Assembly (NCBI GenBank): GCA_964467615.1
Contig: CAYXRK010000001.1
Span: 14,008 to 78,007 of the forward strand
Reading direction: 5' to 3'
Origin: an uncultured Nitrospirales bacterium
GTDB taxonomy: Bacteria > Hydrogenedentota > Hydrogenedentia > Hydrogenedentales > GCA-2746185
DNA: 64,000 nt
Position 1 is the first letter of the stretch. Each line of letters starts with the position of its first letter. Made by a program: the position numbers and the translations under genes. The notes under the pieces are model-generated. The model saw nothing but the letters and a program-made list of their open reading frames with translations, was not told where the DNA came from and did not search any database. Shown here one piece after another: positions 1-64,000 of the stretch.

Positions 1-5
1 AGGAT

Positions 6-48
6 GCAAGGATGCAACTTCTTATAGAAGATTGCATCCTTGCACGCT
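6..48. repeat. Near-perfect 13-17 bp inverted repeat (tgcaaggatgcaa ... ttgcatccttgca) around a 5-13 nt loop, immediately upstream of a TTGACG -35-like hexamer and the first small ORF. Operator-like palindrome or hairpin.
   Basis: Seen directly: revcomp of positions 6-18 equals 36-48. The inner cttc/gaag extends the stem with one bulge. The local sequence is AT-richer than the window average. Confidence 0.5.
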
Positions 49-96
49 TGACGAAAACACCCTTGAAATCGAGGTATTTGAGGAAGGACTTCGGGT

Positions 97-420
97 ATGA
101 ACATTGATGAACTTTTCGACGCGCTCATCGTCGCTGGCATCGACCTAGTGCCGGACGGAACCGAGCACTTGTTCGCCCGTCCGCAACCCGGCAAGGCGAT
201 ACCGCCTGAAATCGTCGAAGCATTGCGAACGTTGAAACCCTTGGTACTCACGCCCGCCTTGCAAAGCTACATCCGCGTGCTGGCCGCATGGCGTCCGGCG
301 AACGACCGAGACCTACCACCCGCGCCGATGTTCAAGGCACGGCCCGAACGTCCGCTGGCATGGGCGGCATGGTGGACGGCTGTTGAGACAGTCCGCCGTC
401 AACGCAAGGCGGCGCGATGA
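97..420 (+). CDS. hypothetical protein (107 aa)
   Basis: ORF with GGAAGGA Shine-Dalgarno 8 nt upstream. The stop overlaps the start of the next ORF (ATGA). No family recognised. Confidence 0.4.
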   Translation: MNIDELFDALIVAGIDLVPDGTEHLFARPQPGKAIPPEIVEALRTLKPLVLTPALQSYIRVLAAWRPANDRDLPPAPMFKARPERPLAWAAWWTAVETVRRQRKAAR

Positions 421-680
421 CAGCCATGAACAACACCATCCCGGCAACCGAGGAGAACCCTCTCGTCGAGCAAGTCATCCGGCGACTGGCCGAGGTACGC
501 GGCACGGGCGACTCACGAGCGGCGGAGATCGGCGCGGTATGGGATCGGTTTATCTTCCGGCTCATGGCATCGCGGAACCTGGACAGACCTACGGCGCATC
601 GCGTCATCGAGATCGAAATGCCCGGACTACATCAGGCGCACATTCGGGCAATCAACGGAATCGAACCGGGTTTACCATGA
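417..680 (+). CDS. hypothetical protein (87 aa), translationally coupled to the preceding ORF
   Basis: ATGA overlap with the 97..420 ORF. No recognisable domain. Confidence 0.35.
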   Translation: MTAMNNTIPATEENPLVEQVIRRLAEVRGTGDSRAAEIGAVWDRFIFRLMASRNLDRPTAHRVIEIEMPGLHQAHIRAINGIEPGLP

Positions 681-974
681 ACATGACGGCAACCCGAAAG
701 CGGCGACATTGGCCGGACGCGCCTGCATCGCGGCAAAGGCGACACGCCCATAGCGCCGTGTTCGAGCTACAACCGCGTGAGGCTTAGCAAACTCGAATCC
801 GGCCATACTAGACCGCTACCGGAATGCGGATCGTCGATTGTGGGGCATCCTACGCAGTCGCATTTGGAGCGGATCGACCGATAATGAGCGAATTCCCGCC
901 GATCATCGTCGATTCGAGGGAACAGCGCCCGTTGCCAATAGCGCGTCGCCTCTCCTATGGCCGTCGAGACAAGC

Positions 975-1391
975 TCAAATCACAAGCCACTGGAAGATGC
1001 ATCCGGGTTCAACTTCGATGGCGAAATCCTCGGCGAATTGCCTGCATCCGAAGATGCAGTTGCAATATGCCTCGATTCGGATGTCGTAGAGTCCTGGTTC
1101 CAGTTGGAAGACCTGCTGTCCGCCGTTTCGGATTTCGTCTCCTTCGCACGAGGATAGGTCGCCTAAGAGATTTTCGCCCCATTCCGCGCTACCTGTTGGA
1201 GCGATATAGACGACGGCGATCACTTTACCTGAAGTGTTATGAACGGCAATTCCGGTTACACCAGTTCCGCAAATGGGATCAAGTCCTCGCGGCGGGCATC
1301 CCACGCACGCCGTGGCAATCAAGAACAGCGGAACCCACGTCAACTTGGAGAACATAACTTCGCCAAAGGGTACGACACGTCGAGTGCTCAT
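975..1391 (-). CDS. small secreted Cys-rich protein (N-terminal signal peptide MSTRRVV...LFLIATAC)
   Basis: The minus-strand ORF has a clear n/h/c signal-peptide architecture and 9 Cys. The competing plus-strand ORF (824..1357) is Arg-rich with no features. The region has lower GC. Confidence 0.35.
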   Translation of the reverse strand: MSTRRVVPFGEVMFSKLTWVPLFLIATACVGCPPRGLDPICGTGVTGIAVHNTSGKVIAVVYIAPTGSAEWGENLLGDLSSCEGDEIRNGGQQVFQLEPGLYDIRIEAYCNCIFGCRQFAEDFAIEVEPGCIFQWLVI

Positions 1392-1629
1392 AACTACACC
1401 TCCCTTGAGGTAATTCAACCTACTCCTTCGGAACGCGAGTAGTCAACGCTGAATCGCCGTCGAACCGCGCCGCACGATCCGAATCCGGCCATAGTCTGAT
1501 ACTCCCGCGCCCGCGTTCGCGTCTCCTAGGTCAACGTTGCACGTCCGTTTCACGCCCGCGACGCTGAAACCGGCCTATCGCACAACAAATCAGGCCATGG
1601 AACGACCCAGCACCGGAACGGTGGCGGCG

Positions 1630-2079
1630 CTATTTTTTCGGCAACGTGAACCGCTGACCGTAGTAGTCATCGTTAAGCTTATGAATGAGATCCTTGCTCG
1701 CTTCAAGGTCCACCTCGAGAAGTTCGCGCATCGAAATGAATCCTCTCAGACGGCTATCCTCGTCCAGCACGACCAGATGTCGAAAGTTCTTGTTCAGCAT
1801 CAGTGCCGTGGCAACGCTATGCTTTTCGTCGATGGAGACATGGAACACGTCTGTCGTCATCACTCCGGTGATTTTCGTTTCACTCGGGTCGAGGCCCTTG
1901 TGCACAACCCGTCGAAGGAGGTCTCGCTCAGAGAAGACGCCGACAATCTCGTCTCCGTCGCAAACTGCCACCGCACCAACGCCCTTTTCATACAAGTAAT
2001 CAACCACTGCTTTGACCGTAAAGCTTGAATCGACCGAGAAGGCTTCGCGCTGGCCGATCAGATCGCGAATAGTTTTCAT
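1630..2079 (-). CDS. CBS domain pair-containing protein
   Basis: Tandem CBS-like motifs (GVGAVAVCDGDEIVGVFSERDLL ... NFRHLVVLDEDSRLRGFISMRELL). AGGGGAGA Shine-Dalgarno before the ATG at 2079. Confidence 0.65.
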   Translation of the reverse strand: MKTIRDLIGQREAFSVDSSFTVKAVVDYLYEKGVGAVAVCDGDEIVGVFSERDLLRRVVHKGLDPSETKITGVMTTDVFHVSIDEKHSVATALMLNKNFRHLVVLDEDSRLRGFISMRELLEVDLEASKDLIHKLNDDYYGQRFTLPKK

Positions 2080-2685
2080 AGGTCTCCCCTTTGGCCTGGT
2101 TGATCGAAGCACAAATCAGTGTAGCACGCGGGTCGTCATCCAGCGGTGAGCTGGAGCGGCTAATTCCGTAGCACAATCCGCAACGCCCTCAACACGCCCC
2201 GGACACTCGTCCAATCCCGGCCATGTCTAACCCTTACCGCGTTCGCGCTCGCGCCGTATAGGGCATCGTAGCGCGTACAGTTCCCCGCTACGCGCGAAAC
2301 GGCCCGATCCCGCCTAAAGTATGCGCAGCGAGGTAGATCGGGTACCTGGCGCGGCGAAGGGGTGGGGTCGCGGATTCGGTTTTTCAGGCGGGCGGAGAGG
2401 CCCCAAACTTTCGTGCCAATTCTTGCGCCACTTTCGCGCCACTCGCCGGGAAAAAGAGGGGATAAATGGTGTTGCGAGAGGATAGGCAAACCGGCGTAAG
2501 TGATTGACAGCAATAGGTGGAGATAAACTACAAAACTAATACAGTCGGATTTCAAGACCGGTGCGTTACCAATTACGCTAACCCTCCGCGAATAATTGTA
2601 CCCGTGTTTCGTCGATATTCCCAAGCGGGGGACGCGCCTCGGGCCGCGGCATAGTATGATTGTCCGTTGATACCGGGGGGATTCC

Positions 2686-6006: not shown

Positions 6007-6945
6007 ATGAGCACAGCGACACTAACGGGCCCTCCCCGGATTCAAATCCAGACGCAGTCGGGCTGCAACGGTCGTTGCGTTTTTTGTCCGAACGAGGCCG
6101 TGCTCAACTCCGACCTGTCCCAGGGGCGCATGCCGCCGGCGCGGTTTCAGCAGATCATCGATGAACTGGCGAAGACGCCCCCTCGGCGCGTGAGTCTGTA
6201 TTTGCAAAACGAACCCATGCTGGACAAGCGGCTGCCAGACTTCTGCCGGTACGTCACCGAGCGCATTCCGTCGGCCTCCACCCTGGTGACGACCAACGGC
6301 ACCTATCTGAGCGAGGCCAGCGCCGCCGCGTTGATCGGCGGGGGGCTCAAACGCATCAAGGTCAGCATTCAATCCCTGGTTCCTGAACGCAACATGGACA
6401 TCATGGGGAAAGTCTGTGATTCGGACAAGGTCGTGAAGAACGTCTTGGGCGTGCGCAAGGTCATGAAGGAAATGCGGGCGAAGGCGTTTGATCTGCGCGT
6501 GTCAACCATCGTCACCGCCATGAACGAAGACGAAATCGGCGATATGCACAGGTTCTGGAAATCGCATGGCGTGAAGATGGTCACGTCCGCGCTCGAGAAC
6601 CGCGGCGGCAACATCGCCAACGCGCTCGAGATGAACGGCGCTGAGATGCGCACGCGAAGCGACTGCATCCGCCCGCACCGCGAGATGTGCGTGCTGTTCA
6701 ACGGCGACGCCGTACTTTGCTGCGTTGACTGGCACCGTGTCGAGGTCGTCGGCAACGTCTTCCAAGACGGCGTAGCGAACGTGTGGAACGGCGCGCGCCT
6801 TCAGCACATCCGCAAGGCGTTCAAAGAGGGCAATACTCAGGCGCTTCCGGAAATCTGCGTCAATTGCACCGAGAGCGCGTGTTCGGCGAAGCAGCGCAAG
6901 GGCTGGCCTTCATTCTTCAGGAACGTTTTCGCGCATGCGGGGTAA
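6007..6945 (+). CDS. radical SAM enzyme with C-terminal SPASM/twitch-like Cys cluster
   Basis: CNGRCVFC (CX3CX2C) at residues 20-27. C-terminal C..C..CC ... CVNCTESAC cysteine cluster. Start codon abuts the AsmA-like stop. Confidence 0.75.
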   Translation: MSTATLTGPPRIQIQTQSGCNGRCVFCPNEAVLNSDLSQGRMPPARFQQIIDELAKTPPRRVSLYLQNEPMLDKRLPDFCRYVTERIPSASTLVTTNGTYLSEASAAALIGGGLKRIKVSIQSLVPERNMDIMGKVCDSDKVVKNVLGVRKVMKEMRAKAFDLRVSTIVTAMNEDEIGDMHRFWKSHGVKMVTSALENRGGNIANALEMNGAEMRTRSDCIRPHREMCVLFNGDAVLCCVDWHRVEVVGNVFQDGVANVWNGARLQHIRKAFKEGNTQALPEICVNCTESACSAKQRKGWPSFFRNVFAHAG

Positions 6946-6999: not shown

Positions 7000-7164
7000 A
7001 TGATATCGATTAGTCAATTGCAACGCTTGGCCAACCTTTTCCTGCAACAGGTTGTTGGCCTCGGAGACGACCTCCTGGGCCTGCTCCAGTTTCGTTTCTA
7101 CGAGCTTCTCGGCGAACTGTTTGCCATCATCGCGCCACTCATTGGCTACACGCCCCCGCAATAG
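7000..7164 (+). CDS. small ORF A (54 aa) with AAGGAG Shine-Dalgarno: MISISQLQRLANLFLQQVVGLGDDLLGLLQFRFYELLGELFAIIAPLIGYTPPQ
   Basis: Not in the ORF track (<60 aa). AAGGAG sits 11 nt upstream of the ATG. High GC3. Lies directly downstream of the rSAM/SPASM gene. Paralogous in composition to ORF B. Confidence 0.4.
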   Translation: MISISQLQRLANLFLQQVVGLGDDLLGLLQFRFYELLGELFAIIAPLIGYTPPQ

Positions 7165-7191: not shown

Positions 7192-7317
7192 ATGGTTCGC
7201 GACCAAATTTTTGCCGCCATCCAAAGTTTCATCGACGACATTACCGTCTTCATCGCCGATTTTCTGGACACGGTGCTAAACGATCTCCTGCCCAATTTCC
7301 TGCCCTTCGACTTCTAG
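7192..7317 (+). CDS. small ORF B (41 aa) with AAAGGAG Shine-Dalgarno: MVRDQIFAAIQSFIDDITVFIADFLDTVLNDLLPNFLPFDF
   Basis: GGAG 8 nt upstream of the ATG. GC3 about 70%. Acidic/hydrophobic with no Cys. Tandem to ORF A. Confidence 0.4.
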   Translation: MVRDQIFAAIQSFIDDITVFIADFLDTVLNDLLPNFLPFDF

Positions 7318-8908: not shown

Positions 8909-9895
8909 CTACGCCAACCACCGCGCCGCATCTTTCGCCCAATACGTAAGAATCAATTTCGCCCCTGCCCGCCGAATCGCGAGCAACGACTCGAGCGCCG
9001 CCCGCTTCTCGTCAATCCAGCCGTTCAACGCCGCCGCCTTCAGCATCGAGAATTCCCCCGACACGTTGTACGCGGCGATAGGCAAATCGAACTCGTCCGC
9101 CGCCCGTCGAATAACGTCGAGATACGGCAACGCGGGCTTAACCATGACAATGTCCGCGCCTTCGTCCACGTCCTCGGCAATCTCGCGCAGGGCCTCGCGC
9201 AGGTTCGGCGGATCCATCTGATAGCTCGAACGATCGCCGAATTGCGGCGGCGACTCCGCGGCGTCGCGGAACGGGCCGTAAAACGCCGACGCGAATTTCG
9301 CGCTGTACGCCATGATCGGCACGTCGGGGTAACCCGCGTCGTCGAGCGCCATGCGAATCTCGCCGATGCGCCCGTCCATCATGTCCGACGGCGCGACCAT
9401 GTCCGCCCCGGCGTTGACGTGCGCCAGCGATTCCTTCACCAACAACTCGAGCGTCTGGTCATTGTCGACGTCGGGCTTCCCGTCGCGGTTCTCGGTGATG
9501 ACGCCGCAGTGACCGTGGTCGGTGTATTCGCACATGCACACGTCCGTGATGACGCACAACTCAGGCGCGGCCTTCTTGATGCGTTCAATAGCGCGCGGAA
9601 TGATCCCGTCCTCCGCATACGCCTCGCTTCCCATCTCGTCCTTGGTCTCCGGTATACCGAACAGGATGACGGCCGGCACGCCTAGTCCCGCGAGTTCCTT
9701 CGCCTCCTCGGCCAGCGTATCGGGCGACCACTGAAAGTTGCCCGGCATCGACGCAATTTCCTGCTTGACCCCAGTGCCATGGCGCACGAAATACGGCATG
9801 ATCAAATCGTCAACGGAAAGCTTCGTCTCGCGCACCATGCGGCGCAACGTCGGGTTTCGGCGCATGCGGCGCAGTCGCGTTTCGGGAAAGGGCAT
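8909..9895 (-). CDS. hemB: porphobilinogen synthase (delta-aminolevulinic acid dehydratase)
   Basis: Full-length match to HemB, including active-site Lys regions ([17 protein letters not shown]) and the Cys-rich Zn site [12 protein letters not shown]. Confidence 0.92.
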
Positions 9896-9964
9896 GGCGG
9901 CGCGGCTCCTTGCTGCGGGACAGTTCTTTGCGGGTCGCGTATGATAGCAAAGGCTGGCCCGTCC

Positions 9965-10147
9965 TAGCCCGCGTCGCGCACCAGTGTTCGTAGCGAGGAA
10001 GTGGAGATGGTTGGTATATCAGGACTTGTTCGGTTCGGATCGGACGACAGCGTGTAGAAACACGTCGAGTTCGATCCGAGACGAAAAGTTCCGAGAGAAC
10101 GGCCATATCCGCTTCCGCAGTAGAATGGTGGTGAGCGATGCGGGCTA
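9965..10147. mobile_element. 183-bp MITE-like palindromic element, copy 1 (about 25-bp terminal inverted repeats TAGCCCGC...)
   Basis: About 93% identical to the reverse complement of 57221..57403. The termini are inverted repeats of each other. The internal sequence is quasi-palindromic. Lies in the hemB / AMP-ligase intergenic region. Confidence 0.7.
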
Positions 10148-10307
10148 AGTCAGCGAGGGAATGCGTCGCGCCCTGCAACCCGGCAGAACTTTCCTGGAAC
10201 GCCCGGACTCGCCGACTGCGGACACGGCGACCCCATCATTCCTGGCGAGAGCCCACCTTCACTGTTTGTTTCTCATCGACTCGCATTCGACATAAACTTC
10301 CCTCGGC

Positions 10308-11687
10308 ATGACACAGATTCTCCCCGATCCCACCAAGCGCGCTCTCCTATTCGCAGGCGGCGAATGGTCATACGCAGACCTCCATGCCCGCGTCGCCTGG
10401 GCGTCCGAACGCCTCCGCGATCGCGGCCTGCGGCCCGGTGACCGCCTCGTCATCAGTCTGCCTGCGGGAGTCGAAGCCGTCGTCTGGCTCTTGGCCGCGC
10501 TCGAGGCCCGCGCCGTGGTTTGCCCCGTCAATCCCAAACTCCCTCACCACGCCCTCGGCGATATCCTCAAGCGCCTCCGCGCGAAACATATCGTCCAGCA
10601 GGCTGACTCCGCCATCGAGGGCGAAATATCTGGCGTCGGCGTTCTCGAGTTCAGCGATGAAGAACTCGCCCGGCCAACCATCGTCGTCGCGACCTCCGGC
10701 AGCACAGCCGAACCGAAGCTCGCCGTGCTGTCGCTCCGAAATTTCCTCGCGAACGCCGACGCCTCGAACCGGAACATCCCCATCGCACCCGGCGACGCGT
10801 GGCTCCTCTCGCTGCCCCTGTTCCACATCTCCGGTCTCGGCATCGCCTTTCGGTGCACGCAGGCCCGCGCGACGATTACCGTGCCGCATCCCGATCAATC
10901 GTTGGCAAGCGCGATCACCGAATTCGGCGTAACGCATGCGTCGCTGGTTTCAACGCAACTGTACCGCCTGCTCGAATCCGAGGAGGGCCGCGCCGCCCTA
11001 TCCGGCCTCAATGCCGTGCTGCTCGGCGGCAGCGCCATCCCGGAATCGCTGATTCGGCGTGCGGTCGAGCGCGGCGTCCCAATCCACACCACCTACGGCC
11101 TCACCGAAAGCGCCGGTCAAGTCACCACCACGCCTCCGGTCTCTGACCTCGAAACGCTGCTGAGCTCGGGGCGCCCCCTCGCCGAGAGCACCATCCGCAT
11201 CGCCGCATCCGGCGAGATCGAAATCGCTGGCCCCACCCTATTCCTCGGCTACCTACAACCCAACGGCAGCATCACCCGGCCCGCCACGCCGGACGGTTGG
11301 TTTCCGACGGGCGACCTCGGCCGCTTCGACGACCACGGCCTACTCCACGTCACCGGCCGCCGCGACAATATGTTCATCAGCGGCGGCGAAAACATCCAGC
11401 CCGAAGAAATCGAACGTGCCCTCGCACAGATCGACGGCGTCGCGCAAGCGATCATCGTCCCCGTCCCAAGCGCCGAATATGGCCACCGCCCCGCCGCGTT
11501 CGTCCAATTGAGGGACCAAACCGCCCTCGAACCCGAAAGACTACGCGCGGCCTTGCGCGAATTGTTGCCAAGCTACAAACTACCCGACGCGTTTTTCGAC
11601 TGGCCGGAAGATCTCACCCGCGACGGCCTCAAACCCAGCCGTGCGGACTTCGCGAAACGGGCGCAGATGCTCGGCGGCAATCACTGA
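10308..11687 (+). CDS. AMP-dependent synthetase/ligase (MenE-like o-succinylbenzoate-CoA ligase family)
   Basis: [12 protein letters not shown]-binding motif, YGLTE and [17 protein letters not shown] motifs. About 459 aa, the size of MenE. menB is present elsewhere in the window. Confidence 0.7.
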
Positions 11688-25324: not shown

Positions 25325-25488
25325 GGAACGACTCCAAACATATCAAGGTTAAGCGATACGTCGCGCGGGCCGGCAGCCGAGGGCGGCCGCCCCCCACTCG
25401 CTCGGCGTAACGCGCGACGCTATGCTTTGTTGGTAGGAAGAATTCAGCGTATGATGTTTAGCGGACATGTGCCTCGGAGGATCGGACC

Positions 25489-34548: not shown

Positions 34549-34981
34549 AAGCGGAGGCGAGAGCATACGTTGAGATTACTGCCTTCGCAGGAATGACAGG
34601 GTGGGGGCCTCGGTTTGAATATCGAGTCGCCCACTATTCACCGAACGCGTGTGGGGCAGCCGCCCCCGACTGCCAGCCTCAGTCGCGGACCCAGATTTCA
34701 TGACAACTGCTTCGAAAATGACCGCACCGCACGACCCATCTTCCCTGCGCCCGCTATTTCCCTTCACACCCTTCGCACGTTCGCACCCAACGTCGCGCCG
34801 CTCCAAAAATCGCGCCCCACACCCAACGAACCAATCACGCACGTGCTGCTCCGAAAATAGCGCGCCACTTACCCAATTCGTGCCTTTTACGACTCGTCAT
34901 CGTCATCGGACGCGCACGCTCAATTTTCATCCTTTCCGGGTGAAAGCCTGCTTTCATGACAATTCCTAAGGAAGCAACGCA

Positions 34982-45251: not shown

Positions 45252-48200
45252 CTATTTCCCGAGCTCCGCCATCAGCCGCGCGATTTCCGCGCGCACGCCT
45301 TGAATCGCCTTGTAGCGCCGATCGGCGACGGCCCGTTCGCCCGGCGCGCCGCCTTTTCCCGGCAACGTGCCGTCGGCATCGAGGCCGCAAAACTGCGCGA
45401 TTGCCGCCGCGCCCCCGCCGAGCAGCCTCTCCGCCTCGCGCGCGGCCTCCGGATGCGCCCCGCGTTGCCTTGCCGCCGCATCGCGCAGCGCATGCAGCAT
45501 CGCGTAGTCCTCGACCCCGTCCCGAACGGCCTCCCAACGCTTGCTGGAGACCACGCCATCGCCCTGATACACCATCAAATAGTCCGGGGATTCCGCCGAT
45601 CGGTACCAGGGGTCCGCGCTTGAGGTGCAATACGACCAAAACCCTATTCCCGTCAAACCGTGATGCCACGCCAGCCACGCCTGCGCTCTGTAGTAACCCA
45701 GCGGCGATTGGTGCTTCGCGTTTCCGTCGCATTCGTAGGTCCACATCTGGGCGCCGGAGTCTTGCATGATCTTTAGTTTCTCGGCGCCCGTATTCAGCAA
45801 GAACCCATTCCGATTCGGACACCAAATGTCGACATACGGGACCATCGACTGCAATTCCTCGGCGGTGATCCGCCCGACCGGGTCCGTGTACATCAGCACC
45901 TTCGGGTCCGCCTCGCGCGTGAGCTTCGCGTTGTTCAAATATAAATCGACCAGGCCTTCGTTCAGTCCCGGTTCGTCGACCGGATACATCGCAAACCCGT
46001 CGTACCCGACGCCCATTTCCTTCAAATGCGCCACCCAATCGCGCATCCACGGGATATACGCCTTCTTGTAGGCCTCGCCGTCCATACCGCCCGGTCCGGT
46101 TAGTGCGCCGAGTTGTTGGAAGAGGAGCATGCCGTGCGGCGCATAGAGGCGGACGAAATTGTCGTGGTCGGCGAAGTCGATCTCGCCGACGAGGTTTCCC
46201 GATTCGTCGAATGTGGCGCGCGGCGCGAACGACGTCGCAAACACGTTAGTCCCATGCGCGGTCATGTCTGCGATGGCCTCCGCCTCGTAGTCCTTGAGGC
46301 GCGAATTGTGGACGTAGGCCCAGTTGCATTGCCGCAATACGTTCGTATCGGCGAGCGGTGTGGGCCATACGTTGACGCTTAACACAGCATAGAGGGTCTT
46401 CGGTTCGGGCTCGAGCGTCCGCAATTTCACGTACGTAAAGGACACCCCCCGACCCATGCCTTTCGTATCCACCGAAAACCAAATCTGCCGCGCATCCAAA
46501 CCCGGAATTGTTAGTACATTTCCCGAGTTCATTCGTGGCAACGCGTCGAAGGACGTATCCAGCATCTGTGTCGGAACGTCGGCTACTTCGAGCAGCGTGA
46601 TCTTGCCCCTCGGGTTTCCCGGATCGCTGCCTTCGTGAACAAGCGGATCGACTTCCACACGCACGGTGTGTGACACGCTGTCCCAATTAATAATGTTCAG
46701 CGCGGCCGACTCCACTTCGCCCGCAAACGCCGACAACGTAAACGCATCGCTCCCCGTACGCCCCTCGATCACCTCGTCCATTCCGCCGAACGGTGCCCAG
46801 GGATTTGCCCAACTCGCCTGCAAGGGCCACGCGCCCGCATCGTGCTGCTTCATTGCCGCGCTCGAAAGCGTTCCCAATCGCTCGAAACGATCCAGGTCTG
46901 CGCGCAATGCGTCGCGCAGGTCTCGCCGCTCCACGTCCGTCAACGTTCCTGCCGTCAGCGCCCGCTCCGCGTATCCGGCAAGCCGCGTCCTCAACTCGCC
47001 CGCCTCACCGAGCAACGCGAACGCGTTCGGCAATCGCCGCGCTTGTTCCTCGATTCGGCCAAGATACTCCCGTAAATCCTGCACCTCCTTGCGGAACGGC
47101 ACGACGTACGCCTCGGTGTTCCGCTGCGCCACGAGCGCGTCTCCCGAATACACGCGGCATTCAATCGTCAGCGCGATTGGCGCCCCCGAAGAAAGCGAAT
47201 AGTCGAACTCGTAGTCGAACGTCTCTTCCGATGACGCGTACGTGCGTGGCCGCGCAGCTTCGCCGTTCTGGCTCACTGTCACGCCGACATGCAGCGCCTC
47301 TTGCTTCGGGTTGCTCACGGTCACGGAAAACGTGTTCGGTCCGATGTACATCTTGCCAAAATCAATCGACGCAATTGTCACGGGCGACCGCGAGAGCGCA
47401 TCGCCGTACGCCGCCTGCCGCGCGCTGCTGAATCGATATTCTGGCCACGCGATCCTCGCATCCGGCTTCGCGTCCGGCCACGCATACGCGAACACCTTGC
47501 TCGTAGATCCCGCGTAGATGATGTACGGAGTTCCGTTTCCGTCCAGATCGGCGACGGTCGGCGATGCGTTCGTCGCGCCCGTCATCGGAATGGTTTCTTG
47601 CAGTTCGCCGTCCGCGCTGAATACGTACATCTCGCCCGAATACCCAGCGGCCACGATATCGATTTTTCCGTCGCCGTCCACGTCGGCGATTGCGGGCGAA
47701 CGCCGCACGCGCTCGTGTACGTTCGCCGTCCACCGCTTCCCGCCATCGGGCGTCAGACTTACCATCACACCGGACAAATCGATTGCGTATATCTCCGGCA
47801 CGCCGTCTTCGTTCGCGTCCGCCACCGCAATGCTCCCGTCAATGGCCTTCGTCGTGGCGTAGGTCCAACGGACTTTACCCATGCCGTCCACCACGGCGAC
47901 CGCGTTGTCGATCGCGCTCACGATCTCGTTCCGCCCGTCGCCGTCCAAGTCCGCGATCACCGGGCTGGTCCCGTTGCCCGGTTTGGCCGCGCGCCACCAC
48001 TCCGTGCCATCGGCATTCAGGCATACGAGCGGAATCTTCGAACCGCCTATCAGCACCGCCGACGACTCGTTCTCCCCGATCGCTCCTATCGCAGGGCAGT
48101 ACGCGTACCCGTGCTCGCCGTTGTATTGCCAGCGCAGTTCACCCTCGTTCGACAGGCAAACAACGTGGCCCTGATCGTCCCCCGCCACGATCTCCAGCAC

Positions 48201-48629
48201 GCCGTCGCCATCGAGATCGAATGCGGCAATTGACGTCGTCCCCCAAACCACCTTGCCGGGAAAATCGAACTGCCAGATCGTGTCCCCCGTTTTCCCCGAC
48301 AGGCAATACATTCGCCCGGCCTGGTTCAGCACCAACACCTCCGGCGTTGGATCCTCGAGCAGATCAACCACCGTCGGCGGGATGCTAATCGGAATTTGCA
48401 CCCCGCTCATCCACATCTGCCGCCCCGCGCTATCGACCGCGATCGTCATTCCTGCAGTCGTCGTCACGACGAGGTCGCTCTTCCCATCGCCGTTCAGGTC
48501 CGCTACCCCCGGCGAACAGTCCACGTCCCCCAACGGCGGATCGAACGTCCACTTCGCCTCCAAAGCCTGCGCGGCAAAACCCCACAGGCCCGTCGTCATC
48601 AAAACACCGCAATATGCCGCCCTCATGCG
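45252..48629 (-). CDS. large secreted FG-GAP/VCBS beta-propeller protein with C-terminal glycoside-hydrolase-like domain
   Basis: Signal peptide. Repeated DLNGDGKSD / DLDGDG / DVDGDGKID FG-GAP calcium-binding motifs. About 600-aa C-terminal domain of unknown (glycosidase-like) function. Confidence 0.6.
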   Translation of the reverse strand, partial: RMRAAYCGVLMTTGLWGFAAQALEAKWTFDPPLGDVDCSPGVADLNGDGKSDLVVTTTAGMTIAVDSAGRQMWMSGVQIPISIPPTVVDLLEDPTPEVLVLNQAGRMYCLSGKTGDTIWQFDFPGKVVWGTTSIAAFDLDGDGVLEIVAGDDQGHVVCLSNEGELRWQYNGEHGYAYCPAIGAIGENESSAVLIGGSKIPLVCLNADGTEWWRAAKPGNGTSPVIADLDGDGRNEIVSAIDNAVAVVDGMGKVRWTYATTKAIDGSIAVADANEDGVPEIYAIDLSGVMVSLTPDGGKRWTANVHERVRRSPAIADVDGDGKIDIVAAGYSGEMYVFSADGELQETIPMTGATNASPTVADLDGNGTPYIIYAGSTSKVFAYAWPDAKPDARIAWPEYRFSSARQAAYGDALSRSPVTIASIDFGKMYIGPNTFSVTVSNPKQEALHVGVTVSQNGEAARPRTYASSEETFDYEFDYSLSSGAPIALTIECRVYSGDALVAQRNTEAYVVPFRKEVQDLREYLGRIEEQARRLPNAFALLGEAGELRTRLAGYAERALTAGTLTDVERRDLRDALRADLDRFERLGTLSSAAMKQHDAGAWPLQASWANPWAPFGGMDEVIEGRTGSDAFTLSAFAGEVESAALNIINWDSVSHTVRVEVDPLVHEGSDPGNPRGKITLLEVADVPTQMLDTSFDALPRMNSGNVLTIPGLDARQIWFSVDTKGMGRGVSFTYVKLRTLEPEPKTLYAVLSVNVWPTPLADTNVLRQCNWAYVHNSRLKDYEAEAIADMTAHGTNVFATSFAPRATFDESGNLVGEIDFADHDNFVRLYAPHGMLLFQQLGALTGPGGMDGEAYKKAYIPWMRDWVAHLKEMGVGYDGFAMYPVDEPGLNEGLVDLYLNNAKLTREADPKVLMYTDPVGRITAEELQSMVPYVDIWCPNRNGFLLNTGAEKLKIMQDSGAQMWTYECDGNAKHQSPLGYYRAQAWLAWHHGLTGIGFWSYCTSSADPWYRSAESPDYLMVYQGDGVVSSKRWEAVRDGVEDYAMLHALRDAAARQRGAHPEAAREAERLLGGGAAAIAQFCGLDADGTLPGKGGAPGERAVADRRYKAIQGVRAEIARLMAELGK

Positions 48630-48880
48630 CGCAATCCCTTCCGTATCGAATTCGTTAAAACCCGAATACCAATCCTGCATTCCATTGTATGCCTTATTCG
48701 GCGCTGATCCGGCGGTATCGGTGTTCATCGGCGGCCAACTCGAAAGTTCAAACGGCCGCGCACTCTTAGCAAGTGCGGGGCAGACGCCCTCGGCTGCCGT
48801 GCTTTCCCGTGCGAAACCCTTTGATCGGCCCTCATCTCCGCGCCATACGTGATAACATTTTTCCGATCAGGAGAAAGGCC

Positions 48881-49375: not shown

Positions 49376-49464
49376 GCGTGACGCAGCGTATCATCGCGAA
49401 ACGGTGATCGGTTTCGGGCTGGGCTTGGCGGAAGTTTGGGTTTCGTCATATTCGATTTTTCCCA

Positions 49465-50484
49465 CTACGATTCTGCAACTGAATAATCAGGCAACTGCAA
49501 GCGCACCAAGTCAATTAGCGTTGCGTTTCCATGCGAATGATCCAGCGGCCTTAAAAGCAAAAAATCATCTGCCGTTACCACGAATTCATCTGCTGGCGTC
49601 TTTGTCATTCCGTTGAAATACGACATAAAGAAACTAAAAAATGATTGTCGTTTCCGCTTCGCAATTCTTTCTATGAATTCGGCATAGCGGATGATCGCTT
49701 CGTCCTTTACCTGAAATGTGTAATCCACGTAGGTTTCCAATACTGACAAGTCATGATCAGTCCAATGAACACCATTGCCTAGTAACGCGAAACTGCGAAA
49801 CGGACGTTTGCTCGCGCTGCCAGAAGACGCCAACAAATTTTCGTTGAATTGAAGATCAAAATCGACCGCGACTAATGACGTTTGCTTTGCTTTCTCAATT
49901 GTTTGAATTCCGCTTCCTAACTTATCTGAACTTGAAAATCGTTGCGCTCCAACACGCTTACTTTCTAGGGATGCAAGAGGAGAAGCACTGTTGAGAAGAG
50001 CAATGCGGCAATACTGCTCTTTGACGGCAATCAGTTTTACAAAAAGCGTACTAGCCTTGCCACCCCATACGACGATAACAGGGAACGCCTGTTCAACGGC
50101 GATGGTTTTTATCGTTTCACCTTCACCGGTCAAGACACCAATTCGCGCCTGCTGCATCAATGGATCGTGCCGTTTCAAAGTGATTTGAAGCGATGGATTG
50201 CCGATACGAAGGTTGTGACCCTTTTGGATATGGGCAACTAACAACGGAGCAAATAGGACGAACTCGACTTTATGAGTGGCTCCAGAACGTCCGCGAAGTT
50301 TCGGCTCATAGATGAGACAATCGCGAATTTTCAAATCAGTAAGTAAAAACTTCTTTATAATGATTTCCTGAACTACACCAATCTTGCGACCTACAGTTCG
50401 GCCGTTCTTTATATTGGTATGCGTCTCAAAATAATAGAAAATCTCCGAAATTCGAGGATCGTGAGGATCGCGTGGATTCGCCAC
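49465..50484 (-). CDS. putative Type II restriction endonuclease (partner of the adjacent MTase)
   Basis: Low-GC (about 43%) ORF immediately downstream of, and overlapping, the N6A MTase gene. Start taken at GTG with GGAG Shine-Dalgarno; the ORF extends to a TTG at 50565. No recognised family. Confidence 0.45.
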   Translation of the reverse strand: MANPRDPHDPRISEIFYYFETHTNIKNGRTVGRKIGVVQEIIIKKFLLTDLKIRDCLIYEPKLRGRSGATHKVEFVLFAPLLVAHIQKGHNLRIGNPSLQITLKRHDPLMQQARIGVLTGEGETIKTIAVEQAFPVIVVWGGKASTLFVKLIAVKEQYCRIALLNSASPLASLESKRVGAQRFSSSDKLGSGIQTIEKAKQTSLVAVDFDLQFNENLLASSGSASKRPFRSFALLGNGVHWTDHDLSVLETYVDYTFQVKDEAIIRYAEFIERIAKRKRQSFFSFFMSYFNGMTKTPADEFVVTADDFLLLRPLDHSHGNATLIDLVRLQLPDYSVAES

Positions 50485-50537
50485 TATTTTCTCCGGCGAA
50501 CGAATCTGACTATCAGTTCCTCTATGATGCTCATATA

Positions 50538-51164
50538 TTACGTTTGTTGCTGCGTCGGGCGCCAAACGGAACTGTGATCAAATAGAAGAGGTTGTTCTTG
50601 CTTCTTTGCCCGTTCGTACTTCGCCATACGTGCCGAACGTAAATCTATCGCAGCGCCGTATTTGGAAAAGACCTCTAAGAACTTCGCTACTTCTGGTCCC
50701 CAATAGACCATTGCACACGACATAGGGGCACCCTTGCCACCGGTCCTTCCGTTTACGAGAAATTTTAATCGGGTGTCGTACAAGAATGCGACCGCTGCAG
50801 TATTGTTCCAGATGAAACGCTTCCAGTGACTTGTATTCGTTGCGACGGGTACTAATGCGATGACTTCCGAATTATGTGTTTGATGACTTTCGGCGCAACG
50901 TCTCAACCAGTCGTAGATTGTCGTGCCTCTCGTCCGATCTGCTCCGTAAGGTGGATTGACGAATATCGTCGGGTAATCCCAACTCGCACTGAGGCCATCC
51001 GTCTTTGGTAAGTGGTACTCAATCGCGGCATCAACGACTGAGTATTTATTTGAGCAAGGGTCTAACGAAATTCTGCCTCCGAATACTTGGCGAACCGCTA
51101 CCACATACTCAAGCGGCGTCCCCCAGTGATGGCTTACTGCGTTGACCGTTCTTCCTGCTGTCAT
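50538..51164 (-). CDS. DNA N6-adenine methyltransferase (Dam-like, phage-type)
   Basis: DPCS (motif I-like) and TIFVNPPYG (motif IV NPPY) signatures. GGAGGGGAAA Shine-Dalgarno before the ATG (MTAGRTV). Low GC. Confidence 0.75.
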   Translation of the reverse strand: MTAGRTVNAVSHHWGTPLEYVVAVRQVFGGRISLDPCSNKYSVVDAAIEYHLPKTDGLSASWDYPTIFVNPPYGADRTRGTTIYDWLRRCAESHQTHNSEVIALVPVATNTSHWKRFIWNNTAAVAFLYDTRLKFLVNGRTGGKGAPMSCAMVYWGPEVAKFLEVFSKYGAAIDLRSARMAKYERAKKQEQPLLFDHSSVWRPTQQQT

Positions 51165-51519
51165 TTTCCCCTCCATGTTCCCAGAACGCGTGGGCTTTAA
51201 TACAGCAATGTTCACTTTGCCTCGTGGTACGCGAGCCGCTTCCGCGCGCTGCCTTTGATCGCTTCAACGGCATGCTTGCCGTCCGTCACTTCCCGCTGGT
51301 TCCACTGGAACCCATTGCCGAAGCGTGATATGCGATCCGTGCATGACCGTCCCTACGGCGACGGTGAACTACTTGCAGCATACATTACACTGAATAAGAC
51401 CGTCTCGCACCTTCAAGGACTTGACGATAATTCGCGTGCTTTTTGTGCCGTGGCAATGCGTCACGAAAACTCGAAGTCTCGCCGAGTTCGAAGACCCGGC
51501 CACGATTTCGATCTCGACT

Positions 51520-54339: not shown

Positions 54340-54436
54340 AGCTGATTTACTCTCCGGCGCAGGCCCTGTAAGATTGGCGGCGCGACCCGCGTAAGCCTTT
54401 CATGGGCACATCGACCGGCGCAACTCGGAATCGGCC

Positions 54437-55507
54437 TTGAGACCCTCGATTAGAACACTCCTCACCGGGTTCGCGTTTCTAGGCGGCACGATCGCGGTTT
54501 CGGTGCTCGGGTACATGCTGCTGGCCGAGGCGAGTTTTCTCGACGCGCTTTTTATGGTGATGATCACCGTGTTTAGCGTCGGGTATGAAGACGTGATTGG
54601 CCTCGACACGCCGGCCCTCAAGGTCTTTACGTTGTTTGTTATCGTCGCGGGATGCGGTTCGTTTGTCTACGCGGTAGGAGGATTTGCGCAAATGGTCATG
54701 GAAGGCGAGATCACGCGGGCGCTCGGCGCGCGCAGGCAGATTCGATCCATCGACGCTCTTCGGGACCACGCGATCGTTTGCGGGTATGGGCGCGTCGGGC
54801 AAATCTTGGCGGCGGAACTGTTGCAAGCGGACTATCCGTTCGTCGTCATCGACGATTCCGAAGAGCGCGCGCAGCAGGCGGGCGCGCGGGGGATACTGGC
54901 CATTACCGGCGACGCCACCGACGAGGGCGTGTTACAGTCCGCCCATATCGAGCGGGCGCGATCGCTGGCAACTGTCTTGCCCGACGACGCCTCGAATGTA
55001 TTCATCACCCTGAGCGCCCGGAACCTGAACCCGAAGCTTAGGATTTTCGCGCGGGGGGAACTGCCCTCGACCGAAGGTAAGCTTACGAAAGCGGGCGCAA
55101 ACCACGTTGTCCTCCCGGCGGCCATCGGCGCGCTGCGCTTGGCGCACATGATTGTGCGGCCTTCCGCTTCGCATCTCATCGACACGCTCGAGAACGCGAC
55201 CATGATCAACGACGACCTCGAATTGCTCGGCGTGCGGCTGAGCGAGATCGAGGTGCCCGCGGGATCTCCTCATGAGAACAAAACCGTCGGCGAACTCGAA
55301 ATTGCTGGCGAAGGCGCGTACCTAATCGTGGCGTTGCGGCGCAGGAACGGAGAAGTCATTCGCAGGCCCCTCGCCGGCGCGGTCGTCGAAGGCGGTGACA
55401 TTGTGATCGTCATCGGCCACGGAGAAGACGACCCGCGATTTGTGTTGGCGAAATCCGGGGCACGCTTGCTCGTCCCGAGCGATCCGCCGCGCGAAACGGC
55501 GGGCTGA
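54437..55507 (+). CDS. K+ channel-like protein with RCK (TrkA-N/TrkA-C) domains; non-canonical filter SVGYED
   Basis: Two TM helices flanking a pore loop (TVFSVGYEDV). Rossmann RCK domain (IVCGYGRVGQ). TrkA-C at the C-terminus. TTG start in the ORF track, so the start is uncertain. Confidence 0.6.
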   Translation: MRPSIRTLLTGFAFLGGTIAVSVLGYMLLAEASFLDALFMVMITVFSVGYEDVIGLDTPALKVFTLFVIVAGCGSFVYAVGGFAQMVMEGEITRALGARRQIRSIDALRDHAIVCGYGRVGQILAAELLQADYPFVVIDDSEERAQQAGARGILAITGDATDEGVLQSAHIERARSLATVLPDDASNVFITLSARNLNPKLRIFARGELPSTEGKLTKAGANHVVLPAAIGALRLAHMIVRPSASHLIDTLENATMINDDLELLGVRLSEIEVPAGSPHENKTVGELEIAGEGAYLIVALRRRNGEVIRRPLAGAVVEGGDIVIVIGHGEDDPRFVLAKSGARLLVPSDPPRETAG

Positions 55508-55513
55508 AACGCG

Positions 55514-56350: not shown

Positions 56351-57223
56351 ATGTCCATCGTATTGATGCTCAACTTGAAGGGCGGCGTCGCGAAGACGAC
56401 CAATTGCGTCGCCGTCGCCGAGGCCATGGCGGACTCCGGTCACAAGGTCCTCGTTATCGACGCGGACCACCAATGCATGGCGAGCGAACTGCTTATCGGC
56501 GAGGAGAAGTTGCTCCGCTGCGAGGTGCGCAAGAAGACGCTGCACGACATGCTCGGCGCGATGATGGACGACGAGTTTACCGAAGCCAACATTCCGCCGT
56601 ACATCGTCGAGCAAGTATCGAACATCGGCGGAGGGTACCCGAACCTTCACTTGCTGCCGTGCTCGATTCGCATCGACGAATTCCAGACGAACATGGCCAA
56701 GGCCCGCCGGGGCTTCAATACGGTCGACGAATATCGCCAGGAATTGCAGCGAAAACGGGGCGTGTTGCAGCGGTTTTTGAAGAGCAACTACGATTCCGTA
56801 CTGATCGATTGCCCGCCGAGTTTGGCCATGCAAGTCGTGGAGTTTCTCCTCATCGGCGACGCGTTCATCATCCCTTCGGTGCCGGACCGTCTTTCCGTGC
56901 GCGGATCGATTTGGCTGCTCGAGCGACTGCGCCGCCGCAACATCTCGCGCATTCAGCCGCTTGGCACGCTGTGGTCCCTCTACCGCACCCAGGCCGCGAT
57001 TCACAATCACATCATCGATCAGGCCGAGAAGGGCATCGAACCGCTCGACATCCTCCCGCGGCCTTTCCGGACGATCATCCCCAATGCGGCGCGCATCGCC
57101 GAATCAACCGAACCCGATCGGCACCCGCATACCTTCTCGTCCAAGTACTCGCCGTTCTTCGCGCAACGCTATAAACACCTCGCGAGAGAAATCCGCACGC
57201 GCCTTACGCGCATGGGGGTCTAG
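56351..57223 (+). CDS. ParA/MinD-family ATPase (orphan ParA-like)
   Basis: Deviant Walker A KGGVAKTT. Walker B VLIDCPP. Confidence 0.8.
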   Translation: MSIVLMLNLKGGVAKTTNCVAVAEAMADSGHKVLVIDADHQCMASELLIGEEKLLRCEVRKKTLHDMLGAMMDDEFTEANIPPYIVEQVSNIGGGYPNLHLLPCSIRIDEFQTNMAKARRGFNTVDEYRQELQRKRGVLQRFLKSNYDSVLIDCPPSLAMQVVEFLLIGDAFIIPSVPDRLSVRGSIWLLERLRRRNISRIQPLGTLWSLYRTQAAIHNHIIDQAEKGIEPLDILPRPFRTIIPNAARIAESTEPDRHPHTFSSKYSPFFAQRYKHLAREIRTRLTRMGV

Positions 57224-57403
57224 CCCGCATACCTCACCACCATTCTACCGCGGAAGCGGATATGGCCGTTCTCTCGAAACTTTTCGCCTCGGATCGAACT
57301 CGACGTGTATCTACATGCTGTCGTCCGATCCGAACCGAAGAAGTTCCGATATACCAACCATCTCCACTTCCTCGCTACGAATGCTGGTGAGATATGCGGG
57401 CTA
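57221..57403. mobile_element. 183-bp MITE-like palindromic element, copy 2 (inverted relative to copy 1); uses the parA TAG as its first three bases
   Basis: Reverse complement is about 93% identical to 9965..10147. Terminal inverted repeats TAGCCCGCATA(C/T)CTCACCA. Confidence 0.7.
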
Positions 57404-57464
57404 GCGCCGCGCGTGAATGCAGGGGCGCGAATGTCTTGCATCGGCCAGTAACGGGGATCCGGAT

Positions 57465-58928
57465 ATGGAGGCGAAGAAGGTGATGTCAGCGCGAGTTGGA
57501 ATTCTCACCGCGACGGTTGTTGCAGTCGCGTTGGCGGGTTGCTCGGGGCCGGCGGAAAAGACAACTCAAGCGCTCGTAGCCGCAGGCGCCGAAGCAAATT
57601 TTCTGCTCCCGCCCGGTTCCCCGCCTCACGTCGTGTTCATTAGCCTGGATACGGCGCGGCCCGACTATCTCGGACTCTACGGCCACCCATGGGTCAAGAC
57701 GCCCAATCTTGACGAACTCGCGGCGGAGTCTGTCGTTTTCGAGGACGCAATGACCCCAGCGCCGACGACGCTGGCCGCGCATACGGCGATGATGACGAGC
57801 ACCTATCCTCACACGCACGGCGTGCCGCGAAACGGCTTCGTTGTTAGCGACGAAAACGTGACGCTCGCCGAAATCTTGAGGGCCGCCGGATACAGCACCG
57901 CGGCAATCGTTGGCGCGTTTCCGCTGTTACACCGTTTCGAGCTGGACCAGGGATTCGATCTCTACGACGACAAGTCCGCTCATGGCGACTTTTGGCAGCG
58001 GACCGCCGAAGAGGTGACCGATGCCACGCTGCGTTATGTTGCGCAGCGTGGACCAGGTGGACCGCTGTTCCTCTTCGTGCACTATTTCGACGCGCACGCA
58101 CCCTACTCCCCTGGCAAAGTGTGGTTTAATCCATACCGCGAACAGCCCGTGGAAGACCCTGGTCATCCCATCACTCCCGATTGGATGGAGGTCATGACCG
58201 GTAAGAAATCCATGGGCGCGCGCAAATACCTGGTGCAGCGCTACGCCGCCGAGATTACCTACCTCGATCACCACCTGGGACGATTGCTCGAAGGCCTCCG
58301 CCAAGCCGGGATCGTGGACAACGCGATCATTATCGTAACCAGCGATCACGGCGAGTCGCTGTGGGACAACGGGCCGTGGTTCGATCACGGGCAGAACACG
58401 GTCCAATCGGTCATCCACGCGGTCGGCATCCTTCGGCTTCCCGGCGCCCGGCACGGAGGCACGCGCGTCGGTGTGCCGGTTTCGACATTGGATTGGATGC
58501 CGACGGTGTTGGCCTATGCGGGAATCACCGCGCCGCCGGGTATCGATGGCCGCGCGATCGATCTCAACGGCGACGCGCCTCGCGTCGGGCCCCGCGACTT
58601 ATTCTGCGAGGCGACGAAACCCTTCACGGTCGAGCGCGAGGGGGAATGGTACAACGCGCAAAAGGAGCGGTGCATTCGTTCGGAGAACTACAAGTTCGTT
58701 TACTCACCGTATGCAAACACGCGGGCCCTGTTTAACGTCGCTGATGATCCTTACGATCACAAGAACTTGCTCGACGCGCCGACTCCGGAGATCGAAAAGC
58801 TCGCCGCCGAGTTGGAGGCAAAGCTCGCGGCATGGCACGCGAGCGCCGCGCCGAAGTCCAGCGCGTTCGACCAGGAGAACGAACAAGAAACCCGCGATCA
58901 ACTCGAGGCGCTCGGCTACGTGAATTGA
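57465..58928 (+). CDS. sulfatase-like (alkaline phosphatase superfamily) lipoprotein lacking the C/S-x-P-x-R FGly motif
   Basis: Lipobox VALAGC. Sulfatase-family N-domain (VVFISLDTARPDYLG), but TPAPTT occupies the position of CxPSR. Confidence 0.65.
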   Translation: MEAKKVMSARVGILTATVVAVALAGCSGPAEKTTQALVAAGAEANFLLPPGSPPHVVFISLDTARPDYLGLYGHPWVKTPNLDELAAESVVFEDAMTPAPTTLAAHTAMMTSTYPHTHGVPRNGFVVSDENVTLAEILRAAGYSTAAIVGAFPLLHRFELDQGFDLYDDKSAHGDFWQRTAEEVTDATLRYVAQRGPGGPLFLFVHYFDAHAPYSPGKVWFNPYREQPVEDPGHPITPDWMEVMTGKKSMGARKYLVQRYAAEITYLDHHLGRLLEGLRQAGIVDNAIIIVTSDHGESLWDNGPWFDHGQNTVQSVIHAVGILRLPGARHGGTRVGVPVSTLDWMPTVLAYAGITAPPGIDGRAIDLNGDAPRVGPRDLFCEATKPFTVEREGEWYNAQKERCIRSENYKFVYSPYANTRALFNVADDPYDHKNLLDAPTPEIEKLAAELEAKLAAWHASAAPKSSAFDQENEQETRDQLEALGYVN

Positions 58929-63140: not shown

Positions 63141-64000
63141 TTAGCTCCGCTTGCGCGCTCGCCGTTTCTTAGGTTCCTCCGAAACGGCCAACGGTGTGGT
63201 CAATTGCTCATACAGCCGAAACAGGAATTCGATGCGCTCACGTTCGCTGTCGAATTTTTCTTTTCGGTAACAGCGATCCACAGCACGATCCAGCGCCCGA
63301 TGCGCTTTCAACAGGTCCCCCGGCATGTAAAGCGGATCGTAGAGATCCGCTAATGTCTGGCCACCGTCCAAATGCTTTTGGCGCACGTCCAACAGTGCCT
63401 GGGCGCACTCCTCGACCTTTGCACGCCGCGCATCGGTCACGTCGACCGGCCAAGGGAAGTTGTTGTAGACCAGTTTGGCCGAATACCGAAGATCAGACTT
63501 TATCCGGCCGCACACTTGGCGGACCCACGCCATGTGCATCGCACTCGTGAGAATGCCGAAGTGAAAAGGGGTAGCGTTCGGAATAAAAAGACAACTATCG
63601 TGAACAATACTTTCGGGACCGAAATATGAGAATGGTATGTACACGCGCCTCTCGGAGCTATGGCGGGGCAAAACGATGAAGTTCGAATCAGGTTGCCTTA
63701 TTTCCGCAAATTGAAATGGGCGCTCGGCCAATCGCTTTGTCGCCGCGCGATTACTTCGGAGGCGATACTCCCGTACGGCTTCGATACGTTCCTTCACGCC
63801 AGGAAGATTTCGATACTGTTGAATGGGGACGTCCTTAAGCCAAATGCACCATCGTTCGGCGCCGCTGAAGTATTCTTTGGCGCTAACCAGCGGACGCAGA
63901 AAAGCCGCGGCCCTCGGCGCGCGAGACAACAGTTCTCTCTTCTCATCCGCGTCGAGTATCAGTTGCCCATCGTCGTTCGGCATACTGCCGAAATTCATCG
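63141..64000 (-). CDS. C-terminal portion of an MmeI/PglX-like class I SAM-dependent N6-adenine DNA methyltransferase (type IIL R-M or BREX-type); N-terminal part lies beyond the window edge
   Basis: YNNFPWP and LYDPLYMPGDLLKAHRALDRAVDRCYR...RIEFLFRLYEQL motifs resemble the conserved C-terminus of MmeI-family / PglX enzymes. The ORF is open to the window end. Lower GC. Confidence 0.5.
   Translation of the reverse strand, partial: MNFGSMPNDDGQLILDADEKRELLSRAPRAAAFLRPLVSAKEYFSGAERWCIWLKDVPIQQYRNLPGVKERIEAVREYRLRSNRAATKRLAERPFQFAEIRQPDSNFIVLPRHSSERRVYIPFSYFGPESIVHDSCLFIPNATPFHFGILTSAMHMAWVRQVCGRIKSDLRYSAKLVYNNFPWPVDVTDARRAKVEECAQALLDVRQKHLDGGQTLADLYDPLYMPGDLLKAHRALDRAVDRCYRKEKFDSERERIEFLFRLYEQLTTPLAVSEEPKKRRARKRS

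Follow-up and report, generated by a model that had tools for sequence, protein, structure and literature searches.

A probable TA-targeting MITE with a whole-length hairpin at two unrelated sites in Candidatus Hydrogenedentota

Background

Bacterial MITEs are typically shorter than 200 bp, carry terminal inverted repeats (TIRs) and 5'-TA-3' termini, show a target-site duplication (TSD), give rise to stem-loop transcripts and occur as filled and empty sites among related genomes, a composition that is A+T-rich relative to the genome being a usual but not a strict feature (PMC2229807). Elements of this sort with TA duplications and hairpins running over their whole length have been familiar ever since Correia, ERIC and RUP were described. 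The Correia elements (NEMIS) of Neisseria are 107-155 bp long, have TIRs of ~24 bp and TA termini with a TSD, and are polymorphic between filled and empty sites (PMC2229807). RUP is an A+T-rich unit of 107 bp with 9-bp TIRs and ~108 copies; its TIRs match a known IS, and it is a MITE proposed to be mobilised by IS630-Spn1 (PMC2229807). ERIC/IRU and YPAL, from enterobacteria, are imperfect palindromes of 127-168 bp that are co-transcribed with neighbouring genes, and for ERIC, which has TA termini, an orientation-dependent effect on mRNA stability has been demonstrated (PMC2229807).

A further kind of dispersed, intergenic, hairpin-forming unit is represented by the REPINs, doublets of short palindromic REP units that are moved by RAYTs, have a conserved tetranucleotide head and make no TSD. 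IS630/Tc1-mariner transposases characteristically duplicate a TA dinucleotide; the preferred target of IS630 itself is CTAG, within which the TA is duplicated, and a few IS5-family subgroups (IS427) also make 2-bp duplications.

Here we describe a 183-bp repeat present twice in a 64-kb stretch of DNA (the window, by which we mean the whole of the stretch analysed) from Candidatus Hydrogenedentota, a phylum known only from metagenomes, on whose mobile elements a full-text literature search returned nothing relevant. The repeat is very probably a non-autonomous DNA transposon, i.e. a bacterial MITE, that inserts at TA and duplicates it. As a TA-flanked MITE with a whole-length hairpin it belongs to a well-known kind (Correia, ERIC or RUP type) and is nothing conceptually new; its exact filled and empty sites document a TA-targeting MITE family in this phylum.

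The Correia elements are the described system with which it shares size class, TIR length, TA termini with a TSD, filled and empty sites and long transcript hairpins, although sequence and phylum are unrelated, and an IHF site, promoter elements and hundreds of copies are features of the Correia elements' own. RUP is likewise a small non-coding unit with TIRs, inserted at TA between genes and presumed to be mobilised in trans, but the present element is longer (183 bp), has longer TIRs (~25 bp), a GC content of 56% and two known copies, and has no sequence similarity to RUP. With ERIC/IRU and YPAL it shares the imperfect palindrome, and with ERIC the TA termini; ERIC, however, has TIRs of only 7 bp, and YPAL lacks TA termini and makes TSDs of 3-26 bp. 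A sensitive blastn search of 5,426 complete E. coli genomes, meant to reveal similarity to ERIC/IRU, gave no match to the element. TA target duplication also links the element to IS630/Tc1-mariner and Stowaway-like MITEs, and its two sites, which reconstruct as CTAA and CTAG, recall the target of IS630. Unlike most described bacterial MITEs, this one, at 55.7% GC, is at most slightly A+T-rich relative to the window.

Results and discussion

Sequence, borders and terminal repeats

A repeat search of the window recovered a single long inverted pair, 9964-10147 and 57221-57404, of 184 nt and 91% complementarity (blastn E = 3e-72 between the two copies; Table 1). Over the 183-nt unit running from TA to TA, 167/183 positions are identical (91.3%, 16 differences), which revises the ~93% given in the original prediction. 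In an alignment that took in 30 nt of flank at either end of the copies, similarity switched on and off abruptly at the borders C-TAGCCCGC ... GCGGGCTA-R. The mobile unit between the terminal TAs is a non-coding core of 179 bp (GCCCGC...GCGGGC) that is almost fully self-complementary, with TIRs of ~25 bp. In copy 2 the TIRs (57220-57245 and 57379-57404) are 26 nt long and 92% complementary, while in copy 1, read directly off the sequence, ~20/25 positions match. The original prediction of an intergenic, quasi-palindromic element with TIRs of about 25 bp, able to form a long hairpin (the fold, described below, takes in the whole length at z = -9.9) and with a second, inverted copy at 57221-57403, is thus borne out.

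At 183 bp the element falls within the size range of bacterial MITEs (<~200 bp). Three of its reading frames are open, none of them holding an ORF with a Pfam domain, and its translations have no protein match. Its GC content (55.7%) is only slightly lower than that of the window (60.6%). Both copies lie between genes, the left TA of copy 2 doubling as the first two bases of the TAG stop of the gene upstream. No third copy, diverged and degenerate ones included, was detected in the window by blastn (word size 7) or by nhmmer (--max) with a profile of the two copies, and the same profile detected no further copy in any of the other loci fetched.

Table 1. Coordinates in the window of the two copies of the repeat and of the features around them
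Feature	Position	Strand	Basis and remarks
Probable MITE, copy 1: TA + 179-nt core (9967-10145) + TA	9965..10147	+	Reference orientation; repeat pair, sharp borders, hairpin, empty site in L019
Left copy of the duplicated TA target, copy 1	9965..9966	.	Single TA in L019
Right copy of the duplicated TA target, copy 1	10146..10147	.	Single TA in L019
Left TIR, copy 1, TAGCCCGCGTCGCGCACCAGTGTTC	9965..9989	+	~20/25 match the reverse complement of 10123-10147
Right TIR, copy 1	10123..10147	+	Pairs with the left TIR
Probable MITE, copy 2: TA + core (57223-57401) + TA	57221..57403	-	Inverted relative to copy 1; empty site in L017
hemB (porphobilinogen synthase)	8909..9895	-	Pfam ALAD, 3e-150; start 69 nt from the left end of copy 1, reads away
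AMP-dependent ligase gene	10308..11687	+	Pfam; L019 gene table; 160 nt downstream of copy 1, followed by nqrA-F
ParA-like P-loop ATPase gene	56351..57223	+	Pfam AAA_31/CbiA; directly upstream of copy 2
Sulfatase gene	57465..58928	+	Pfam; start follows the L015 gene call; begins ~60 nt past copy 2
TAG stop of the ParA-like gene = target TA + first core base	57221..57223	+	ORF 56351-57223
Sigma-70-like promoter match GGGACA-17-TATGAT, just upstream of copy 1	9917..9945	+	Consensus scan only

Genomic context of the two copies

The window is an ordinary stretch of Candidatus Hydrogenedentota (Hydrogenedentes) chromosome, the nearest named homologues of its hemB all belonging to that phylum. Pfam matches were checked for ~40 of its genes, directly or through precomputed tables. 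Copy 1 sits in a gap of 412 nt between the divergent hemB and AMP-dependent ligase genes, and copy 2 between the genes for a ParA-like ATPase and a sulfatase. The flanking genes of the two copies are unrelated and share nothing, so the copies do not belong to a duplicated gene-flanking segment; they are dispersed, two in 64 kb, in unrelated contexts. Among these ~40 genes, Pfam searches revealed no transposase or integrase, and the window contains neither an IS with matching ends nor a partner transposase. Integron attC sites, prophage att sites and CRISPR had been considered as identities for the repeat and were dropped, the window having no integrase, array or matching architecture.

Groundwater contigs from Hainich are near-identical to the window (99.9% for L003; L015 and L016 also match), and a further contig, L020, falls inside it. 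Both copies are present independently in L003 and L015. The low-coverage Hainich contig L016 (ENA ERZ1292634) stops in copy 2 after 113 nt of the element (positions 2824-2936 of that contig), perhaps because assembly broke down at the repeat or palindrome; elements of this type can break assemblies.

These contigs bear on the suspicion that the copies are merely the ends of a duplicated gene-flanking segment, or a product of chance or of faulty assembly. Such a reading could appeal to there being only two known copies and to the end of L016 inside the element, but the flanks are unrelated right up to the termini, L003 and L015 recover both copies independently, and a sister lineage has empty sites (see below), so that its probability is negligible. 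The duplicated segment in particular, named by the original prediction as the case against itself, is excluded by the unrelated flanks and by a similarity that ends at the termini.

Filled and empty sites in a sister lineage

Three contigs assembled from run SRR22387992 (Logan) were compared with the window: L017, reached through a homologue of the ParA-like protein (P0121, 99% amino acid identity), and L018 and L019, reached through cluster members of the window's radical-SAM and NqrE proteins. They are 81-92% identical to the window at the nucleotide level over 33 kb and therefore represent a sister lineage. L017 and L019 match the window on both flanks of the copy 2 and copy 1 sites, respectively, without the element, of which the 33 kb from the sister lineage contain neither a copy nor a remnant.

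At the copy 1 site the 5' end of hemB and the AMP-dependent ligase gene are 153 nt apart in L019. The empty site there reads GGCCTCTTC-TA-AGTCGGTA (...TTC-TA-AGTC...) and the filled site in the window GGCCCGTCC-TA-[GCCCGC...GCGGGC]-TA-AGTCAGCG (...TCC-TA-[179-nt core]-TA-AGTC...). When 181 nt are removed from the window in silico, the junction aligns base for base with L019 through the single TA: the insertion of copy 1 added exactly 181 nt and duplicated its 2-bp target, TA.

At the copy 2 site the spacer between the ParA-like and sulfatase genes measures 60 nt in L017 against 241 nt in the window, a difference of 181 nt. The junction itself is diverged over 12 nt (GTGACGAGCGAG in L017 versus the reconstructed CTAGCGCCGCGC in the window), with TG in the sister lineage at the expected TA, so a TA duplication at this site is backed by the net length of 181 nt and not by sequence. 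The ParA-like protein is 290 amino acids long in both lineages, the L017 ortholog ending in TGA; the insertion in the window went into the TA of this gene's stop codon, where the G with which the element begins restored TAG, and the protein was left unchanged. The reconstructed targets are C-TA-A (CTAA, observed as such in L019) and C-TA-G (CTAG), both of the form C-TA-R. The repeat had been predicted to be a dispersed, possibly mobile, MITE-like family, with target-site duplications and insertion polymorphism as the things to look for; the unrelated contexts, the clean TA duplication at copy 1 relative to L019 and the empty sister sites at both loci all agree with that prediction. Elements of this kind mark recent genome change between closely related groundwater lineages.

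Whether the element was gained in one lineage or lost from the other has to be weighed separately. Long palindromes lack stability, and where direct repeats flank them their precise excision is favoured. An element ancestral at both loci could accordingly have been lost twice from the sister lineage by precise deletion, through hairpin slippage between the flanking TAs, in which case the lineage of the window would not have undergone transposition recently. The 9% difference between the copies, comparable to the 8-18% between the lineages, would suit this, as it shows that the copies are not very young, and no outgroup with conserved synteny was obtained: hemB relatives on L004-L007 (82-83% amino acid identity) show neither synteny nor the element and are therefore uninformative on polarity, and a ParA-like outgroup on L021 (67% amino acid identity) is not syntenic. 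Double loss, however, requires two independent and perfectly precise deletions on 2-bp repeats, with no copy or remnant left in 33 kb, and seems decidedly unlikely; even then, the two loci being unrelated, the element must have reached them as a mobile unit by insertion. Gain in the window's lineage is the more parsimonious of the two, and it is on parsimony, given the outgroups at hand, that this preference rests.

Mode of transposition

The TA duplication at copy 1 is that expected of IS630/Tc1-mariner transposition, the type proposed for RUP and IS630-Spn1, and it is from the TSD alone that membership of this type is inferred. An IS630/Tc1-mariner-type transposase has thus probably mobilised the element in trans. 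This would be a DDE enzyme whose gene lies elsewhere in the genome and which binds the inverted repeats and carries out cut-and-paste transposition. The two copies probably descend from different source copies, as they differ by 9%, paired changes in both arms included, and further members of the family are therefore to be expected in the genome outside the window.

A TA at either end could formally also arise with no duplication at all, if the element had entered between the T and the A or had inserted 3' of CTA. The latter is what would be expected of single-stranded DNA mobility, whether of the IS200/IS605 type (a PATE) or as a REPIN moved by a RAYT, the far TA then being the element's own. 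In keeping with such a mechanism, both left flanks end in C-TA, as does the right end of the element, a single long hairpin is formed, as in REPINs, and the genome has a separate family of REP-like palindromes. The element nevertheless has true inverted repeats starting at the very termini rather than sub-terminal hairpins, its 25-nt terminal repeat, read directly, is not itself palindromic as a REP unit would be, there is no REP head of the GTAG/CTAC type, and 183 bp is long for a REPIN. Moreover, an empty site with one TA, compared with TA-core-TA in the filled one, is the classical signature of a TSD, and terminal inverted repeats with TA flanks set the element apart from REPINs. We consider single-stranded mobility very improbable, and a MITE moved through its inverted repeats the better description.

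Distribution

A 20-mer from the best-conserved block of the element, GAGGAAGTGGAGATGGTTGG, was searched for as an exact word, an approach that misses diverged relatives, in genomes of 185,579 species (one genome for each) and in JGI metagenome contigs. All 6 matches share just 20-22 nt with the element and are therefore due to chance. Three scans of IMG/VR viral contigs with other blocks of the element gave 0, 0 and 3 matches, the 3 sharing only 18-21 nt, and sensitive blastn found no match to the element in plasmids, phages or E. coli genomes. Its translations (longer open stretches, five of the six frames, concatenated) were also compared with 5.8 billion protein clusters, in order to catch spurious ORFs called over other copies of the element, and no match was obtained. 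The absence of the 20-mer from public collections indicates a narrow family, which, within the reach of exact-word searches, appears restricted to this species-level lineage.

Hairpin fold and strand asymmetry

A hairpin spanning the full length is predicted in each copy, with minimum free energies (MFE) of -109 to -118 kcal/mol in the favoured orientation, so that a transcript of the element would form the long stable stem-loop seen in other bacterial MITEs. The + strand of copy 1 has an MFE of -110.5 kcal/mol against -66 +/- 4.5 for dinucleotide shuffles (z = -9.9), 0/200 of which were as stable, and for the reverse strand the MFE is -88.6 (z = -7.8). The + orientation of copy 1 folds better than its complement by ~27 kcal/mol in both copies (-108.8 and -118.2 versus -82.3 and -91.1). 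Positions of the arms that are not Watson-Crick pairs are mostly G·U on the better-folding strand (9 versus 4 in copy 1, 7 versus 2 in copy 2), an asymmetry of ~11 versus 3 independent events by our own count (one-sided binomial p ~0.03).

The differences between the copies largely fall in the stem: of the 16, 13 affect 11 predicted pairs and only 3 are at unpaired positions. In two neighbouring pairs both partners have changed without loss of pairing (12/174, C-G to A-U; 13/173, G-C to U·G). Of the other changed pairs, 5 are G·U in one copy and Watson-Crick in the other, 4 have a mismatch in just one of the copies, and none is mismatched in both. The excess of G·U on one strand and the paired changes may be the outcome of selection, acting either on an RNA or on the element as single-stranded DNA. 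Arm-to-arm correction within a palindrome, or chance with two sequences, could account for them equally well.

Neither copy is followed by a T-run, and neither hairpin is therefore a canonical intrinsic terminator. Were the element co-transcribed with its neighbours, it would place a hairpin of ~88 bp in the mRNA. In the promoter-like sequence upstream of copy 1 the -10 region is conserved in L019, as is the stretch GTATGATAGCAAAGG. If this promoter is used, the 5' UTR of the AMP-ligase/nqr operon would consist mostly of copy 1, read in its better-folding orientation, whereas copy 2 would be transcribed the opposite way by read-through from the ParA-like gene into the sulfatase gene. Elements of this kind can equip operon leaders with large hairpins, as copy 1 would do for the Na+-NQR operon. 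By analogy with ERIC and Correia elements, for which such effects have been shown, the hairpin could alter RNA stability.

It might then be asked whether the repeat is primarily a structured RNA, either the gene of a small RNA or a cis-regulatory hairpin, maintained because its fold is under selection and only spread by mobility, or else an exapted MITE. The better fold of one orientation in both copies, the G·U bias towards that strand, the preservation of pairing among the differences and the promoter-like site just upstream of copy 1, in the well-folding orientation, could all be read in this way. Set against them is the opposite reading of the two copies if they are co-transcribed with their neighbours, which leaves no consistent RNA strand, and the absence of the element from both loci in the sister lineage, which means that neither operon needs it. 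No gathering-level match to Rfam was found in the whole window, and at E values up to 10 the region 9700-10400 gave only two noise matches, both outside the element. Covariation statistics need more than two sequences, the arms of a palindrome can also change in step at the DNA level, through arm-to-arm template switching or because a transposase recognises both ends, and a near-perfect duplex of 88 bp is typical of MITEs, not of functional RNAs. A structured RNA as the primary identity of the repeat is thus unlikely.

The narrower proposal that a MITE family has been domesticated as a structured RNA module, with one transcribed strand under selection, is in our view quite unlikely as well. 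If true, such a module might, for example, control the AMP-ligase/nqr operon as a hairpin in its 5' UTR, or be cut by double-strand-specific RNases, and it would be the first case of a domesticated MITE RNA in the uncultured phylum Hydrogenedentota. A mobile MITE remains the reading adopted here.

Other repeats and differences between the lineages

A second dispersed family is present in the window, consisting of a self-palindromic, REP-like motif of 20-25 nt, GGCAGCCGAGGGCGGCTGCC(CCACA). It occurs three times (25372-25391 on the + strand, 34655-34674 and 48779-48798 on the - strand) against 0.02 expected by chance, and also in the sister lineage (L017 5448-5510, L019 9070-9145), once as a perfect inverted doublet of 25 nt resembling a REPIN. 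Four diverged direct repeats of 44 nt lie at 47512-48506 (-), within the ORF 45252-48728 (1158 amino acids). The L017 ortholog of this ORF has FG-GAP/beta-propeller Pfam matches, so these are units of a protein repeat and not a DNA element.

The two lineages also differ on the scale of genes. A segment of 2 kb (~49400-51470) with ORFs of low GC3, encoding a 339-amino-acid protein without a Pfam match and a phage-type Dam DNA methyltransferase (PF05869), is absent from L017 and looks like a lineage-specific acquired island. A TrkA-N/ion-channel gene (54437-55507, in the region ~54405-55513) is likewise missing between the PLD and TauE genes of L017, and is another gene-scale indel between the lineages. 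At the left end of the window (1-2545, compared with L018 1-2908) homology begins at 2546, the DNA to the left of the YhdP-like gene differing between lineages. An MmeI-like type IIL restriction-modification gene (63141-64000, - strand; L015 14077-15309), with MmeI_Mtase, TRD and C domains, runs off the right end of the window. Finally, two small ORFs on the + strand (7000-7164, 54 amino acids, MISISQLQRLANLF...GYTPPQ; 7192-7317, 41 amino acids, MVRDQIFATIQSF...LPFDF) immediately follow a radical SAM/SPASM gene (6007-6945). Gene calls cover both of them in L018 and L020, and their protein sequences are conserved in the sister lineage; they may encode RiPP precursor peptides.
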